This document shows positions 14,491-53,932 of a stretch of 64,000 bases of DNA, one piece after another. The DNA is from Candidatus Poribacteria bacterium (GTDB lineage: Bacteria; Poribacteria; WGA-4E; WGA-3G), in the NCBI GenBank assembly GCA_965214095.1, contig OZ243938.1:1440001-1504000 (forward strand). The letters are read 5' to 3'. The notes under the pieces are model-generated. The model ran no database searches, was not told where the DNA came from, and saw only the letters and a program-made list of their open reading frames with translations. How positions within the stretch are numbered: the stretch's first letter is position 1; each line of letters opens with the position of its first letter. The translations under genes and the position numbers were made by a program.

Positions 14491-15429
14491 TTAATTGTCA
14501 CGCAATTTTTTGATTATTGCTTTGGGTAGCGGTGCAGACCCGGATGTAGCGACACCGTCATCAACTTGGGCAGGTGTCATCATTCCTGGTGTAACACAAC
14601 AAACTGCGCGATGTGCCAAAATGAATTTGAGTGCAGCTTGTGGTAGACTTTTCGCTTTTCCTCGGACAACTGATTTTATCTGTTCAACTCTCTCTAAATC
14701 TGCAAGGAACTTTTCACGGGGCCATGTCTTCCGATAATCGTTATCAGCAAATAAGGTATCCACATTGAGTTTACCAGACAGCAACCCTGATGACAAAGGC
14801 TGGCGAACAGTTACGGCAATACCTTTTGCTGCGGCTGTTTCCATCACAGGTTTTGCCATCCCTTGATTTAGGATGTTGTAGGTGAGCATGAGCGATGAAA
14901 TACCTGTTTCTTCAATTGCTTTGAGTGCTTGCGCTTCGTTTCCAAGACACAATCCATAGAAGCGGATTTTTCCTTCAGACTTGAGTTCAGCCATTGTGCC
15001 AAATGCTTCATCCCATATCTCTTCAGGTGGAGGGGCATGAAATTGATAGATGTCTAATACATCTCTTTTCAATCGTGTGAGACTTCCCTCAACAGATTGA
15101 CGAATATATTCACGCGAAGCATTGAATGCAGGCACCTTGCCACCTTGACTTATCCACCCATCGGAGTCCAATTCATATCCGAGTTTCGTTGCAATGACAA
15201 CCCTATTACCGAGTGCTGAAAACGCGTTACCTAAAAGTTTTTCAGCGCGTCCACCCCCGTATTGGTCAGCGGTATCGTAATAGGTGACACCTTTTTCAAA
15301 AGCGTATCGTAGGAGATCCACGGCTTCCTTTTCACCGATGTCTCCCCATTCGCGTCCTCCGAGTTCCCAGGTTCCCATACCGATCTCGGAGACGGTCAAA
15401 CCCGTTTTACCAAACTTACGCTGTCGCAT
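14491..15429 (-). CDS. Aldo/keto reductase
   Basis: VSEIGMGTW, YDTADQYG, IATKLG and SLTRLKRDVLDIYQFH motifs. Confidence 0.92.
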   Translation of the reverse strand: MRQRKFGKTGLTVSEIGMGTWELGGREWGDIGEKEAVDLLRYAFEKGVTYYDTADQYGGGRAEKLLGNAFSALGNRVVIATKLGYELDSDGWISQGGKVPAFNASREYIRQSVEGSLTRLKRDVLDIYQFHAPPPEEIWDEAFGTMAELKSEGKIRFYGLCLGNEAQALKAIEETGISSLMLTYNILNQGMAKPVMETAAAKGIAVTVRQPLSSGLLSGKLNVDTLFADNDYRKTWPREKFLADLERVEQIKSVVRGKAKSLPQAALKFILAHRAVCCVTPGMMTPAQVDDGVATSGSAPLPKAIIKKLRDN

Positions 15430-15553
15430 ATTGTCCCTCCAGATGGTCTTATGAGAATTTTATATGTTCTTTGTTTTTTTGTCAACAATTTCTTTTTAGT
15501 GATTACGCGACTACAAGCATGAATGTCCGAGGCGCAATGAATTGGGCGGATTC

Positions 15554-15708
15554 TTGTTTGAACCAGGTTTTTCAGGATTGACAAGACAAGAGTTTGAAAC
15601 ATCAAAGTGCCATCCAGAGAATAAACGTTAAACTGGGAATAGGAACTTTGCAGAGCCAAACTCATAATCCTGAAAATCTACTAATCCTGAAAATCCTGGT
15701 TCAGACAA
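15554..15708. mobile_element. MITE-like family M6 (TTGTCTGAACCAGG...CCTGGTTCAGACAA)
   Basis: Terminal inverted repeats with internal AATCCTGAA-like repeats; full copy at 52641-52830, fragments at ~21631-21693 and 11413. Confidence 0.75.
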
Positions 15709-15896
15709 ATAGCAATACAAATCCATAATTAAGTTAACGTTTGGGAATAATATTGAACAAAAATCCTAAAACTAATGGTTTATCTACTTTTATTTTAAGG
15801 GTAATATGATCGTAGGGGCGAGGTCATGAAGATTAATTTATTAAACGGGTAATACTCATTTACCCAAACCCGGTAGGTGCGGTTTCCTAACCGCAC

Positions 15897-17384
15897 CATA
15901 GGCGTCAATTTAAGGATGCACCAAGACCGATAAGTGTCAACTTTTAATCAGAGGAAGTATAAATTATGAAATAAAACTTCTGTAAAAATGAAAACACCTC
16001 ATATATAATGTAGATATAGATTTATTATGGTCTACAAAGAGGTGTTTCCTAATGAATACATTATCACAAGTTCCCAAAGAAATGCAACATATTCTTACAA
16101 CTATAGCCAATGATGCAGCTCTCAATACAGGTTTTGTCAAAAGAAGTTGTAAACTCAACGGTAGTCGTTTTGCTCAAATACTCATTTGGACTTGGTTAGA
16201 AAACCCAGATGCCACCTATACACAACTTGCGCAAACCGCTGGTGTGCTGGGGATTTCAATCTCACGACAAGCCATTGAACAACGATTTACATCTGAAGCA
16301 GCAGAGACCCTGAAAGTTATCCTTGATGCTACTGCGTCCAAGGTTATTTCTGCCGACCCGCAAACGCTTCCGCTCCTTGAAAAGTTCACTGGTGTCTATT
16401 TACAAGATAGTTCTTGGATTACACTCCCTGATGTGCTCCACGAAACTTGGGAAGGTGGAAGCAAAAAGAATAAACCGAACACAGCTGCCGTGAAACTCCA
16501 CCTGCGTTTTGATAGTGCCACAGGCACTTTTGAACACTTTGAACTGACCAATGGTATCACCGCTGATAGTGCTATTGAAAAGCAGATTGACATGCTACCC
16601 GCCGGCAGTTTGCGCCTCGCAGACCTCGGCTATTATTCACTTGATACCTTCAAAAGACTTTCCGATGCAAACGTCTTTTGGATATCACGCTACAAAGTCC
16701 AGTGTTTTCTCTATGATGAAACAGGTGACCCTTTTTGTTTGCTAAAATGGCTCAAGAAGGGTTCTAATAACTTCAAGGACAAACAAATCTTTATAGGTAA
16801 AAACAAGCGTCTCAAAGCACGATTAGTTGTTCAAAGACTTTCAGAAACAGAAACCCAACAGCGTATTAAGGAGATAAAACATCGTGCAAAGCGGAAGTAT
16901 ACGAAACCTTCACCAAAACGACTTCAGCTCGCAAGATGGAATATCTACATTACTAATATAAAAGTAGACCATCTGACTGCTGAACAGATTTGTGCTGTCG
17001 CACGCATCCGATGGCAGGTTGAGTTGATGTTCAAGTGCTTCAAAAGCATTGGAAAAGTTGATACCTCCCGTAGCGACAAGCCATATAGAATCTTATGTGA
17101 GTTATATGCAAAACTCATCGTCGCAATTATGCGGCACTGGATCATGTTAAGGGTCGGTTGGCGATGTCTAAAACATAGTCTAACAAAAACAGCAGAACTT
17201 ATTAGCACCTTCGCACGCACACTTGCAATAGGTTTCCGCAAGTCTATAATGTCTTTTCGGCAAACTTTTGATGAAATAAAACACGCTTTCCAAAATGGGT
17301 GCTACATTGAGAGACGTGCTAATAGAGACACAACATTAGAACACCTTGAAAATGCAGCAAAAAATCACTAAATTGACGCTTATG
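15897..17384 (+). mobile_element. IS4-family insertion sequence, 1488 bp, 16-bp TIRs, 20-bp flanking direct repeat
   Basis: TIRs CATAGGCGTCAATTTA / TAAATTGACGCTTATG; GTGCGGTTTCCTAACCGCAC on both sides. Confidence 0.9.
16052..17371 (+). CDS. IS4-family DDE transposase
   Basis: LQDSSWI, LADLGYY and RWQVELMFKCFK (YREK-like, with Y replaced by A); stop codon lies inside the right TIR. Confidence 0.92.
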   Translation: MNTLSQVPKEMQHILTTIANDAALNTGFVKRSCKLNGSRFAQILIWTWLENPDATYTQLAQTAGVLGISISRQAIEQRFTSEAAETLKVILDATASKVISADPQTLPLLEKFTGVYLQDSSWITLPDVLHETWEGGSKKNKPNTAAVKLHLRFDSATGTFEHFELTNGITADSAIEKQIDMLPAGSLRLADLGYYSLDTFKRLSDANVFWISRYKVQCFLYDETGDPFCLLKWLKKGSNNFKDKQIFIGKNKRLKARLVVQRLSETETQQRIKEIKHRAKRKYTKPSPKRLQLARWNIYITNIKVDHLTAEQICAVARIRWQVELMFKCFKSIGKVDTSRSDKPYRILCELYAKLIVAIMRHWIMLRVGWRCLKHSLTKTAELISTFARTLAIGFRKSIMSFRQTFDEIKHAFQNGCYIERRANRDTTLEHLENAAKNH

Positions 17385-17625
17385 GTGCGGTTTCCTAACC
17401 GCACCGGACTTCTCAAGGAAATTACCCAATTTATTTCTTAATCCTCATCACCTCGCCCTCTTCCAAATTACATAACCGTAATTTTAGAATGGACACTCCA
17501 CTAAATATCCCTGCCATATACGATGCTCAACAATTAGATTGACATGTTGAACGTGTTCTGATAGGATATTGTTATGCAATTTAAGTGTTTTGGAAGATTA
17601 AATACGTTCGATTTTAGGGACAAGT

Positions 17626-18666
17626 ATGAAATTATTGGTCACGGGTGGAGCAGGATTTATCGGGACGAACTTTATTAGATACTGGCTCAAGGAGTATCCA
17701 AATGATGATATAGTGAACCTTGATTTGTTGACTTATGCGGGAAATCTCGCCAATCTGACAGATATTGTATTAGCTTATACAGATCGGTATGTGTTTGTGC
17801 ATGGTGATATTTGTGATGATACATTCGTATCGGAAGTAATGGAGACACATCAACCTGATGTGATTGTCAACTTCGCGGCGGAATCGCATAATAGTCGTGC
17901 TATATTGTACCCGCGTGTATTCTCAGAAACAAATGTGATGGGAACACAAGTATTATTAGATGCTGCCCGTCAATACGATGTGTCTCGGTTTCATCATATT
18001 TCTACATGTGAGGTATACGGTGAACTTCCCTTGCATTCATCTGATGCGTTTTCAGAAACAGCCGCTTACCGACCACAAACCCCTTACAACGCATCAAAAG
18101 CAGCTGCCGATCATCTCGTCAACGCATACTTCCACAGTTTCGGACTTCCGATTACTATCTCTAACTGTTCCAATAATTATGGACCTTATCAGCATCCGGA
18201 GAAACTGATCCCGCTTTTTACGACGAATGCCATCCAAGATTTGCCATTGACACTCTATCGGAGCAGTCATAACCGCAGAGAATGGTTGCATGTTGATGAC
18301 CACTGCAGTGCGATTGCATCGGTTATTCACAACGGTAAGCTTGGAGAGACCTATAATGTCGGTAGTGGCGTTGAGAAAAGTATAGAGGAAATAAGCGATT
18401 TTATATTGGATGTGTTGGATAAGCCGCAAGACTTGAAAACTTATGTTCCCGACAGACCTGGACACGATTGCCGTTATCTGTTGAATTCCCAAAAAATAGC
18501 ACGTGAACTCGGTTGGCAACCAACAATACCGTTTGAAGAAGGCATGCGAAAAACAATTGCGTGGTACGTTGAAAATCGTGAATGGTGGGAAAAAATCCGC
18601 AAAAAACCTGACACAGAAAACGTTAAAGAGGATAAATGGGAGAAGTTCTCACAGCAAAAGAGGTGA
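17626..18666 (+). CDS. rfbB: dTDP-glucose 4,6-dehydratase
   Basis: VTGGAGFIG, LTYAGN, FAAESH, YNASK, NCSNNYGPYQHPEKLIP and DRPGHD motifs. Confidence 0.92.
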   Translation: MKLLVTGGAGFIGTNFIRYWLKEYPNDDIVNLDLLTYAGNLANLTDIVLAYTDRYVFVHGDICDDTFVSEVMETHQPDVIVNFAAESHNSRAILYPRVFSETNVMGTQVLLDAARQYDVSRFHHISTCEVYGELPLHSSDAFSETAAYRPQTPYNASKAAADHLVNAYFHSFGLPITISNCSNNYGPYQHPEKLIPLFTTNAIQDLPLTLYRSSHNRREWLHVDDHCSAIASVIHNGKLGETYNVGSGVEKSIEEISDFILDVLDKPQDLKTYVPDRPGHDCRYLLNSQKIARELGWQPTIPFEEGMRKTIAWYVENREWWEKIRKKPDTENVKEDKWEKFSQQKR

Positions 18667-21571: not shown

Positions 21572-21828
21572 AGATAATAATAACATACATTAAGGACATA
21601 TTCAACTGAATTTCAAAACTTCAAATCATACTTTGCAGAACCAAACTCATAATCCTGAAAATCTACTAATCCCGCAAATCCTGGTTCAGACAAACAGAAA
21701 TACAAACCAATAAGAAAATTAACGTTTGTGAATGATATTGAACAAAAAATCTAAAACTAAACAACCCTGTGGTTCTGTAAGCATTTTGGATAATATATTC
21801 TTGAATATCTTACTGAACTCCATTATAA

Positions 21829-25225: not shown

Positions 25226-25510
25226 CATAGGCGTTTTCCCCAGGCAGGTAGGTTCGGTTTCCTAACCGAACCTTATGTGTCAATTTAGTGCAAATTAGGC
25301 GTTTTCCCCAGGCCGGTAGGTTCGGTTTCCTAACCGAACCATAGGTGTCAATTTAGTGTAAATTAGGCGTTTCCCCAGGCCGGTAGGTTCGGTTTCCTAA
25401 CCGAACCGGATCCTATACGAGAACCTCTATAAAGGTATTTGGCGCAAACTCGGTTCGGTTAGGAAACCGAACCTACCGCTACTTGGAAGGACGCTAAATT
25501 GACGCTTATG
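25226..25510. mobile_element. 171-bp IS4-ended MITE (25340-25510) preceded by two extra tandem left-end units (~68-bp period)
   Basis: IS4-type ends at 25226, 25272, 25340 and 25495-25510; three direct REP-A hairpins plus one inverted; reverse complement of 52263-52433. Confidence 0.85.
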
Positions 25511-51119: not shown

Positions 51120-51220
51120 TGGTTTGTCTACCTTTATTTTAAGGGTAATATGATCGTAGGGGCGAGGTCACCTCGCCCTCTTCCAAATCATATACCCGTA
51201 ATTTTAGAGTGGACATTCCA
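51120..51220. mobile_element. Intact 101-bp MITE M5 with REP-B hairpin; CTAT duplication
   Basis: CTAT on both flanks; GTAGGGGCGAGGTCACCTCGCCC at 51156. Confidence 0.82.
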
Positions 51221-52262: not shown

Positions 52263-52433
52263 CACAAGCGTCAATTTAGCATCCTTCCAAGTACCGGTAG
52301 GTTCGGTTTCCTAACCGAACCGTATTTGTGCCAAATACCTTTATAGAGGTTCTCGCACAGGTTCCGTGCGGTTAGGAAACCGCACCTACCGGCCTGGGGA
52401 AAACGCCTAATTTACACTAAATTGACGCCTATG
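52263..52433. mobile_element. 171-bp IS4-ended MITE with an internal inverted REP-A pair; 20-bp flanking direct repeat (18/20)
   Basis: Ends CACAAGCGTCAATTTA/TAAATTGACGCCTATG; flanks GTGTATAGAAAAATGTACCC and GTGTATAGAAAACTGTGCCC. Confidence 0.88.
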
Positions 52434-52830: not shown

Positions 52831-52915
52831 ATAGGACTAAAAACATCTTAATTTCTCTTGCCATTGTTCCTAAATTTGATTATACTATAACCTAACTTAT
52901 ACATTCATATTTAAT

Positions 52916-53917
52916 TGAACTCATAGCGAGTAACATCTAAGCATCGTTGAAAGTTGCTCGAAAATTTATCATTGAATATGCTAAATTACGAAAACCTAAA
53001 CGTGTTTCTTTGAGTTTATCATAACTTAGAACGAGTCTTCGGTAAGTATCTTGCCACCCGAAAGTTCGCTCTACTTTATACCGGTCTTTGTATATATCTT
53101 TTCTAAACCACCGGAACTTGCGAGCGATAGCGATAGGTTCTTTAGTGTTTCGTTTGTTAGGGTAGATCACTGGGATCAGTCCTTGTTCTTTAATAATCTT
53201 ATGATTCACCTTGGAATCAAAACCAGAATCCAGCGTTAGCGCGGAACCATCAAGTGCCATGCCAATCCGATTGCTGAAGGAGATGAGTTCGGTCAATGCC
53301 TCGGGCAAAATCGTTGTATCATGTTGGTTCACTGGTTTGAGGGTTATTGGACCAATGATAAAACCTTTATTGTCGGTGATAGCCACCTCTTTTTCACCTT
53401 TTTGATGTTTATGACCTGAATACCCTATGGTGTCACCCCTTTTTTTACAACAGTGTTTGAACCATCACCATGTAAACAAGAGGTGTCAAGTTGATCACTA
53501 TCATGAAGATGTATGACAGATGCTTCAAAAAGTTTCTCATAAGAACCATCTTTTGACCAACGATTATGCCATTTATAGACGTTAGACCAATGGAGTTCAT
53601 TACGCCGTGTGCGGAGTTGATCCCATTGAATACCGGTATGTAAAACATAGAGGATATAGTTGAATATCTTATAGAAAGACAGTTTCGGTTTGGGACCTTT
53701 TATGCGTTTCTTTAGATGAGGTTTGATATAACGATTAAAATCCTTACGTGAAACCTGCTTCGGAATACCATTGTATCTGAGGGGCTCTTGAACCTTGTCT
53801 GCCATAACAACACCTTTCAATAAGTTATAGATATATGAAGTGAAAGAATAGGACATAAATAAACTCTTGTGTTTCCCTATTATATAGCATTATTATGTTT
53901 TACTCAATATGAGTTCA
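52916..53917 (-). mobile_element. IS5-family element (~1.0 kb); transposase in two ORFs (53425-53805 and 52937-~53440) joined by a -1 frameshift
   Basis: TIR TGAACTCATAnnGAGTAA; LHTGIQW, HGDGS, LDSGFDS and YKDRYKVERTFGW motifs; A7G4 slippery run at 53436-53446. Confidence 0.88.
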
Positions 53918-53932
53918 TTTAAAAGGAATGAG

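Follow-up and report, generated by a model that had tools for sequence, protein, structure and literature searches.

A four-layer nest of repeats and mobile elements in a Candidatus Poribacteria genome, with an insertion sequence that duplicates about 20 bp of its target

Insertion sequences (IS) that target repetitive extragenic palindromes (REPs) are known from five families, and the available text of Tobes & Pareja 2006 (PMC1525189) lists IS1397/ISKpn1, ISPsy8, ISPpu9/10, ISPa11 and ISRm22, the last of the IS4 family. They enter REPs at a fixed position, ISRm22 at the palindrome axis, and their target duplications of 0–6 base pairs (bp) leave the REP split. In the IS4 family duplications measure 7–13 bp in all seven subgroups and 4–6 bp in three offshoot families, corresponding to about one helical turn in IS4 and about half a turn in the offshoots; the only long repeats mentioned in the available part of that review are those of IS1634/IS1549, whose length differs from copy to copy, between 8 and 514 bp (De Palmenaer et al. 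2008, PMC2266710). REPs with a GTAG tag and their doublets (REPINs) are moved by REP-associated tyrosine transposases (RAYT), as described in the available parts of Di Nocera 2013 (PMC3733652) and Bertels & Rainey 2011 (PMC3116915). Here, we report a nest of four repeats and elements in a stretch of 64,000 bp (the window, C1:1440001–1504000) from a Candidatus Poribacteria genome of 5.25 Mb in 4 contigs. The nest occupies a 2.2-kb gap between two divergent genes, and its innermost layer is an IS that enters a REP at a fixed position, as the REP-targeting IS above do, and unlike them duplicates 20 bp and leaves two whole, re-usable REPs. Targeting of REPs by IS is already known; apparently new here are the fixed duplication of about 20 bp, which copies the whole REP, and a MITE (miniature inverted-repeat transposable element) that sits at palindrome dyads with 1 nucleotide (nt) duplicated. 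The interest of the locus is what makes the nest, that is, the IS clade and the dyad-seeking MITE, and not the nesting as such.

The transposase of the IS scores 80.5 bits against Pfam DDE_Tnp_1 (PF01609), 195.9 bits against the NCBIfam model transpos_IS4_1 (NF033592, cut-off 115) and 29.2 bits against the IS1634 model NF033559 (cut-off 100), which it does not match. Residues D119, D191, E324, R320 and K331 are invariant among 40 homologs. R320, E324 and K331 of the YREK signature are kept, the Y position is A317, and a Y stands there in 2 of 13 aligned relatives. An AlphaFold model built with the 40 homologs (predicted local distance difference test 85) had Tn5 transposase chains as all five of its top matches in the PDB (E-values 3.5e-9 to 2.2e-7, TM scores 0.41–0.43), where a search with the sequence gave no match. 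The transposase is a DDE enzyme of the IS4/Tn5 type, and its predicted fold is nearest to that of Tn5. The IS resembles IS4 and Tn5 (IS50) in its single open reading frame (ORF), the DDE_Tnp_1 domain, the R(3)E(6)K spacing, its short inverted repeats, the Tn5-like predicted fold and its ends, CATAGGCGTCAATTTA and CATAAGCGTCAATTTA (near-complement), which begin 5'-CAT as IS4-family ends do. It differs from the IS4 family in the alanine at the Y position and in the length of the duplication, 20 bp here and 17–20 bp in relatives. A scan for relatives in one genome per species returned 60 loci, the best 41 of which had 47–90% amino-acid identity and all belonged to records with the title Candidatus Poribacteria; at E≤1e-10 a search with the protein gave 786 homologs in metagenomes, with no informative name among the 120 listed.

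The boundaries of the IS are set by three copies at non-palindromic sites, where the first base is C, the last base is G and direct repeats of 20 bp lie outside. A genome-wide scan for the 16-nt IS end, with up to 3 mismatches, gave 113 left and 102 right ends that form 56 pairs, namely 13 full IS, 32 elements of 170–179 bp (mostly a 171-bp MITE) and others of different lengths. Direct repeats flank 39 of the 56 pairs and measure 20 bp in 34, 19 bp in four and 21 bp in one; 24 of these 39 pairs lie in one REP, REP-A, and 15 elsewhere (3 full IS and 12 of MITE size). The duplication of about 20 bp accompanies all 13 IS copies and dozens of 171-bp MITE derivatives, also at non-palindromic sites, and shows that the IS and these derivatives cut the target strands 20 bp apart (19–21 bp). 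When the same end definition was applied to the relatives of 47–90% identity, direct repeats were present at 28 of 38 loci, with lengths of 17 bp (n=2), 18 bp (n=7), 19 bp (n=11) and 20 bp (n=8). The sites duplicated there are mostly GTAG-tagged palindromes private to those genomes and some are non-palindromic. Repeats of 17–20 bp at these loci make the long duplication a property of the clade.

The hairpins that flank the IS could alternatively be extended inverted repeats of the element itself, or stem from recombination between REPs, since each is nearly palindromic (18 of 22 positions alike when read as an inverted repeat) and they stand on both sides of 10 of the 13 IS. The loop is, however, in direct and not inverted orientation on the two sides, relatives elsewhere duplicate different palindromes of their own genomes, and the idea is refuted by 3 of the 13 IS and the 12 MITE-size derivatives, which have repeats of 19–21 bp at unrelated, non-palindromic sites. 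We regard the chance that the hairpins are anything other than target duplications as practically negligible.

Two copies of the 22-nt hairpin GGTGCGGTTTCCTAACCGCACC, at 15876 and 17384, bracket the ORF of 439 amino acids (aa) at this locus. REP-A is a 22-bp palindrome preceded by GTAG (consensus CGGTAGGTtCGGTTTCCTAACCGaACCgg), found in 298 copies by a strict and 538 by a loose count and often arranged as inverted doublets. Counted as 20-mers with up to 2 mismatches its cores number 510 and cover 0.196% of the genome, against which 76 of the 215 IS-type ends lie next to a core, in one and the same register; ten of the 13 IS copies lie inside REP-A in one constant register. The preferred site has the form G|GTG...CAC|C, of which REP-A is the best match, and what the non-REP sites have in common is limited to a G/GTG and, at the opposite end, a CAC/C, with no palindrome. 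The terminal C and G of the IS complete the 22-bp palindrome on both flanks (15876–15897 and 17384–17405 here). Because the duplication spans the 20-bp core and the IS supplies the C and the G, a full REP-A stands on either side and the target is doubled instead of destroyed. Targets rebuilt in this way are used again, as all five back-to-back element pairs are spaced by exactly 19–20 bp and gaps of any other size up to 60 bp are absent. The 171-bp MITE itself consists of two IS ends around an inverted REP-A doublet, and a core is present in 36 of 39 MITE-size pairs.

Two copies of this MITE lie in the window, at 25340–25510 and 52263–52433 (C1:1465340–1465510 and 1492263–1492433), the second at a non-REP site with a 20-bp duplication identical at 18 of 20 positions. 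A tandem array at C1:2057240–2057414 has a period of 58 bp, each unit being one REP-A and a 38-bp IS end, and looks like the product of repeated insertion into regenerated targets followed by deletion.

REP-A is similar to the REPs of RAYT systems in its GTAG tag, its roughly 510 copies and its inverted doublets. Unlike in those systems, no Y1 gene is flanked by REP-A, on which ground a Y1/RAYT enzyme was rejected as its mover, and 222 of the 510 cores lie in, against or at most 120 bp from IS-type ends (75 inside paired elements, 76 abutting an end and 71 within 120 bp of an unpaired end; 288 are free). Within 600 bp of the five Y1_Tnp genes no REP-A core was found save one inside a layer-3 MITE at C1:4229851. 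A cyanobacterial host, suggested by the heptamer-like AATCCTG repeats, was rejected because a Photo_RC domain is missing from the genome, HIP1 shows no enrichment and the relatives of the IS belong to Candidatus Poribacteria records. The SDR of Nostoc and Nezha (the latter in the available text of PMC3184786) therefore serve as analogies only.

The length of the duplication might be set by the target and not by the enzyme, if the IS captured REP-A as an extruded cruciform or hairpin and cut at the base of its stem; 20 bp would then be the size of a structure and not a protein ruler. This would suit one related genome, where the same 1451-bp IS duplicates 19 bp when the REP loop is one base shorter (L011, L018–L020) and 20 bp when it is one base longer (L012, L014, L021). 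It is at odds with ten non-REP sites that have only 0–5 of 10 complementary pairs (random mean 2.5) and yet the same length of 20 bp, and with L016 and L024 of the related genome, which give 19 bp; a play of one base pair either way is also common among IS. We hold the cruciform explanation to be rather doubtful and favour cuts measured by the protein, in which a transposase dimer would read the half-sites at the two ends of the 20-bp interval, which are separated by two helical turns.

The length of the duplication is taken to be constant within a family, as a reflection of transpososome geometry. Long target duplications characterise the IS1202 family, where they also extend beyond one helical turn, as do those of IS1634/IS1549; the latter are variable, whereas the length here is fixed at 19–21 bp. 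A search of full-text literature on IS4-like elements, lying outside ISfinder, TnCentral and the additional files of papers, found no relevant precedent for 20 bp. One candidate, PMC2680597, was set aside as its available part concerns genomic islands. A Tn5-like enzyme with a fixed stagger of 20 bp would be a test case for active-site spacing and target bending.

The nest was examined by cutting out the layers by coordinates (Table 1) and searching each reconstruction against the whole genome with BLAST. Each excision restores the enclosing element, and all of the restored elements, layer 3 included, have further genomic copies: 13 for the IS, 17 uninterrupted ones for the 113-bp MITE (layer 3), 8 others for M5 (layer 2) and about 40 for the layer-1 repeat. 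The initial annotation, which had described four nested layers with uninterrupted versions of layer 1 near 21752 and 62222, an M5 with a CTAA duplication and a twin with CTAT, and an IS in the REP-A hairpin of layer 3 with 20 bp duplicated, is borne out in all these respects. Identity between copies drops from the inside outwards, with 98.4–100% for the IS, 88–96% for layer 3, 88–96% for M5 and 77–92% for layer 1.

We consider it highly likely that the nest records four successive insertions, the oldest outside and the youngest inside, including the 20-bp-duplicating IS and the dyad-placed MITE as described. A dispersed repeat of about 235 bp would first have entered the promoter-distal gap, and the 101-bp MITE M5 would then have entered this repeat with a 4-bp YTAR duplication. 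The 115-bp MITE would have landed at the exact dyad of the palindrome inside M5, duplicating one base, before the 1488-bp IS with its predicted Tn5-like DDE transposase entered the REP-A palindrome at the centre of layer 3. Three different ends and three duplication lengths (20, 1 and 4 bp) suggest three transposases, as the initial annotation had proposed with its minimum of three, and only that of the IS is encoded in this genome.

Table 1. Positions of the nested layers, their duplications and the flanking genes (window coordinates)
Feature	Position	Strand	Remarks
Layer 1, left and main part	15549..15775	+	BLAST coverage profile; MAFFT alignment of 10 paralogs
CTAA, left M5 target duplication	15772..15775		right copy 17501–17504; single CTAA in layer-1 paralogs
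M5 (layer 2), left arm, ends ..GAGGTC	15776..15825	+	C at 15825 is the duplicated central hairpin base
Layer-3 MITE, left part: A + TGAAGATTAA... through first REP-A core	15826..15896	+	with 17405–17448, 115 bp
Left 20-bp IS target duplication, REP-A core GTGCGGTTTCCTAACCGCAC	15877..15896
IS, 1488 bp (CATAGG...CTTATG)	15897..17384	+	13 genomic copies, 98.4–100% identity
IS 16-bp terminal inverted repeats, CATA[G/A]GCGTCAATTTA	15897–15912 and 17369–17384
Transposase gene, 439 aa	16052..17371	+	DDE_Tnp_1, NCBIfam transpos_IS4_1, Tn5-like predicted fold
Right 20-bp IS target duplication	17385..17404
Layer-3 MITE, right part, ...TTAATCCTCA + T	17405..17448	+
Duplicated C (17449) and M5 right arm (17450–17500), ACCTCGCCC...GGACACTCCA	17449..17500	+
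Right CTAA (17501–17504) and last 9 bp of layer 1 (ATATCCCTG)	17501..17513	+
Intact M5 twin, CTAT duplication	51120..51220	+
Aldo/keto reductase gene	14491–15429	-	flank of gap
GDP-mannose/dTDP-glucose-dehydratase-type gene (sugar-nucleotide dehydratase)	17626–18666	+	other flank of gap

Layer 3, freed of the IS and of one duplicate, measures 113 bp and aligns end to end with the 17 uninterrupted copies at 87.6–95.6% identity. It is a small, non-coding MITE of 115 bp with ATGAAGATTAA and TTAATCTTCAT as terminal inverted repeats and 19 genomic copies, every one of which (19/19) has an A next to its left end and a T next to its right end. One base further out the two sides agree in 15 of the 19, which we read as a 1-nt duplication, and at least 7 of 9 flank pairs are complementary in 13 of the 19, vs 0.16% of 100,000 random positions. 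The host stems comprise at least six palindromes, among them the hairpin of M5, a number of GTAG-type REPs and the hairpin at the end of an IS200-like element. Among the empty members of one host REP family, 46 of 50 have just one base, C or G, at the centre, from which it follows that the insert is A+113+T with the central base duplicated. These single-base centres rule out both a 3-bp TNA/TCA and a 2-bp AT duplication. The initial annotation had thus located layer 3 correctly, in the loop of the M5 hairpin, and had taken the duplication to be TCA; one nucleotide is the better reading across the family, TCA fitting this locus only because the M5 stem happens to end in T and A. Two further genomes, G005 and G003, showed the 1-nt duplication in 8 of 11 additional copies, and the end pattern is present in 18 of 18 genomes of the same genus, with the reversed control in none. 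To our knowledge, insertion at a dyad with 1 nt duplicated matches no described IS family.

An autonomous partner of layer 3 was sought in this genome, where no pair of its ends encloses a transposase gene, no rve domain occurs and the other DDE_Tnp_1 elements end differently; an IS3-family partner, suggested by the TG..CA ends, was rejected as the genome is without an rve domain. Judging from ends and target sites, the MITE would be moved by an enzyme that is not encoded here and that may recognise palindrome centres, either as a hairpin or cruciform or as two-fold symmetric duplex. A dyad-seeking MITE that duplicates 1 nt suggests that an uncharacterised chemistry of insertion, or mode of target capture, is at work.

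In other genomes and subfamilies (L066–L076 in G005 and G003; C1:1598255–1598316) the layer-3 MITE has another GTAG-REP, one resident there, at its centre, and it also inserts in REP loops, for example in that of REP-A itself in L067, so that REPs and this MITE nest reciprocally. Four non-coding elements of about 390–400 bp with layer-3-type ends were observed at C1:1112119–1112507, 1519767–1520158, 4738460–4738860 and 2154560–2154961. All of them lie in the palindrome GTAGTCGCGCAATT and have internal inverted repeats GTCCCAGCGGGAC... and ...GCACCGCTGGTGC, and they may represent larger relatives of the missing autonomous element or what is left of it. The genome also has four Y1 (IS200-like) transposase genes of 141 aa, and 160 bp upstream of one of these, at C1:4229808–4230434, a layer-3 MITE sits in a hairpin CCCAAGTC...GACTTGGG.

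M5 without layer 3 is 101 bp long and has 8 other copies of 88–96% identity, the twin at 51120–51220 among them, and the hairpin GAGGTCACCTCG is uninterrupted in all eight. A 4-bp YTAR duplication is typical of IS5-type elements, and M5 has such duplications, CTAA here and CTAT, TTAG, CTAG and CTAG, together with near-matches, elsewhere. Of its 9 copies, three are located in high-copy repeats and three adjoin, at a common CTAG, the end of a related element. M5 behaves as an ordinary IS5-type MITE and shows no preference for repeats. The initial annotation had inferred that at least three transposases prefer pre-existing repeats or hairpins as targets; this is supported for the IS, with 10 of 13 copies in REP-A, and for layer 3 at palindrome centres, and is not supported for M5, whose sites show only YTAR. 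An IS5-family autonomous partner with M5 ends was not found, as a DDE_Tnp_1 IS of 1 kb in 9 copies and a single-copy element at C1:1860060 both differ.

The outermost layer is a modular dispersed repeat of about 235 bp in roughly 40 copies, with a core (15660–15708) present about 150 times and a long hairpin, GAACCAGG..CAGGATT / AATCCTG..CCTGGTTC. With M5 and one CTAA removed, 25 BLAST hits extend over the junction with 8 nt or more to either side, and all ten aligned paralogs are contiguous through AAAACTAAATA.CCCTG. A search of 15300–17800 against Rfam gave no match at E≤1. Just to the left of layer 1, at window 15520–15548, lies a separate palindromic repeat of about 29 bp (the TGAATGTCCGAGGCGCAATGAATTGGGCG type, with about 52 copies), and palindromes related to it flank the elements of about 390 bp with layer-3-like ends.

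Related genomes show the gap in other states, and one of them supports the nesting independently. The congener G036, with flanks 78% identical, has window position 15508 joined directly to 17530 and the whole block is absent. Other, unrelated repeats occupy the same gap in G005, G006 and G033, the last with a right flank 94–97% identical and a rearranged left side. Closer orthologs were considered as carriers of a partial nest and discarded, G033 being rearranged and G005, G006 and G001 having other repeats or none. Two motifs conserved in five congeners bound the gap, TTGTCAACA at 15475–15488 and TTGACA..N..CTGATAGGATATTG at 17539–17573. They probably act as promoters for the two divergent genes, which would explain why insertions are tolerated only between them.

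Given such a gap, the nest could reflect tolerance and not targeting, with elements dropped into a permissive region and landing in each other by chance. The unrelated repeats held in the gap by G005, G006 and G033 between conserved promoter-like motifs speak for this, as does M5, which shows no more than a need for YTAR and has only 3 of its 9 copies in high-copy repeats. Tolerance cannot, however, explain why 10 of 13 IS and 76 of 215 IS-type ends occupy one exact register of a 22-bp palindrome, nor why layer 3 stands at the exact dyads of many palindromes, with A...T next to the dyad in 19 of 19 copies. Chance is excluded for the two inner layers, the IS and layer 3, and as an account of the nest tolerance appears quite unlikely.

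A further concern is misassembly, in which repeats were collapsed or chained and the nesting would not be physical. Four public runs, probably from one source, were compared as short contigs, none of which spans the locus; small-share runs (sponge and coral metagenomes) do not bear on the habitat, and run X3 covers only repeat parts. In favour of this, the region is wholly multi-copy, the whole stretch is spanned by none of the listed contigs and a number of short-read joints continue into other copies. On the other hand, each junction shows the duplication proper to its family (20 bp, 1 nt or 4 bp), and a contig of single-copy depth (232x) runs from 17419 over the junction of M5 and layer 1 into unique flank. 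The depth of the IS, 2655x vs about 205–232x for unique sequence, fits 13 copies, and a second layer-3 copy, at C1:2742818–2744438, also holds the IS, in the opposite orientation. A contig record covering 15746–15818 has 30 and not 31 letters to the left of the layer-1/M5 junction and was not counted as bridging. The short contigs neither contradict nor span the locus, and we judge a misassembly to be very improbable.

Several observations weigh against the account of four insertions by the elements described. No long read or single contig across the locus was found among the assembled run contigs. Direct repeats are not clear in 17 of the 56 paired IS-type ends and are absent at 10 of the 38 related loci, the central base is not duplicated in 4 of the 19 layer-3 copies, and 2 of the 19 have weakly palindromic flanks. 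The copies are not all independent events, so that the binomial figures for REP-A targeting, extreme as they are, overstate significance; the layer-3 copies at C1:1970865 and 2814988, for example, have long flanks in common. For M5 and layer 3 the mechanism is read from end sequences and duplications, no transposase having been found for either, and a named relative with a 20-bp duplication may already be catalogued in ISfinder. A broader reading is possible rather than probable as a whole, namely that this clade of transposases shifted its cuts from about 9 to about 20 bp, that REP-A was spread largely by the IS and its MITE and not by a RAYT, and that an unrelated 115-bp MITE enters any palindrome at its dyad.

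If this broader reading is true, a transposon would be breeding its own landing sites, each insertion making a new copy of the target and the 171-bp MITE adding two. A duplication that regenerates its target would be a simple route by which REP-like palindromes multiply without a RAYT, and such regeneration would account for the accumulation of repeats as nests and tandem arrays. All of this would take place in an uncultured lineage, whose related records bear the title Candidatus Poribacteria.

A second IS, of about 1000 bp, lies in the window at 52910–53918 (C1:1492910–1493918, minus strand) and has 9 copies of 97–100% identity. Its ends are GAACTCATA...TATGAGTTC and its duplications of 3 bp read TAT, AAT, CCT, ACT, ATC and AAA. 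It carries the DDE_Tnp_1 part in an open frame of 175 aa and is unrelated to M5 or layer 3.

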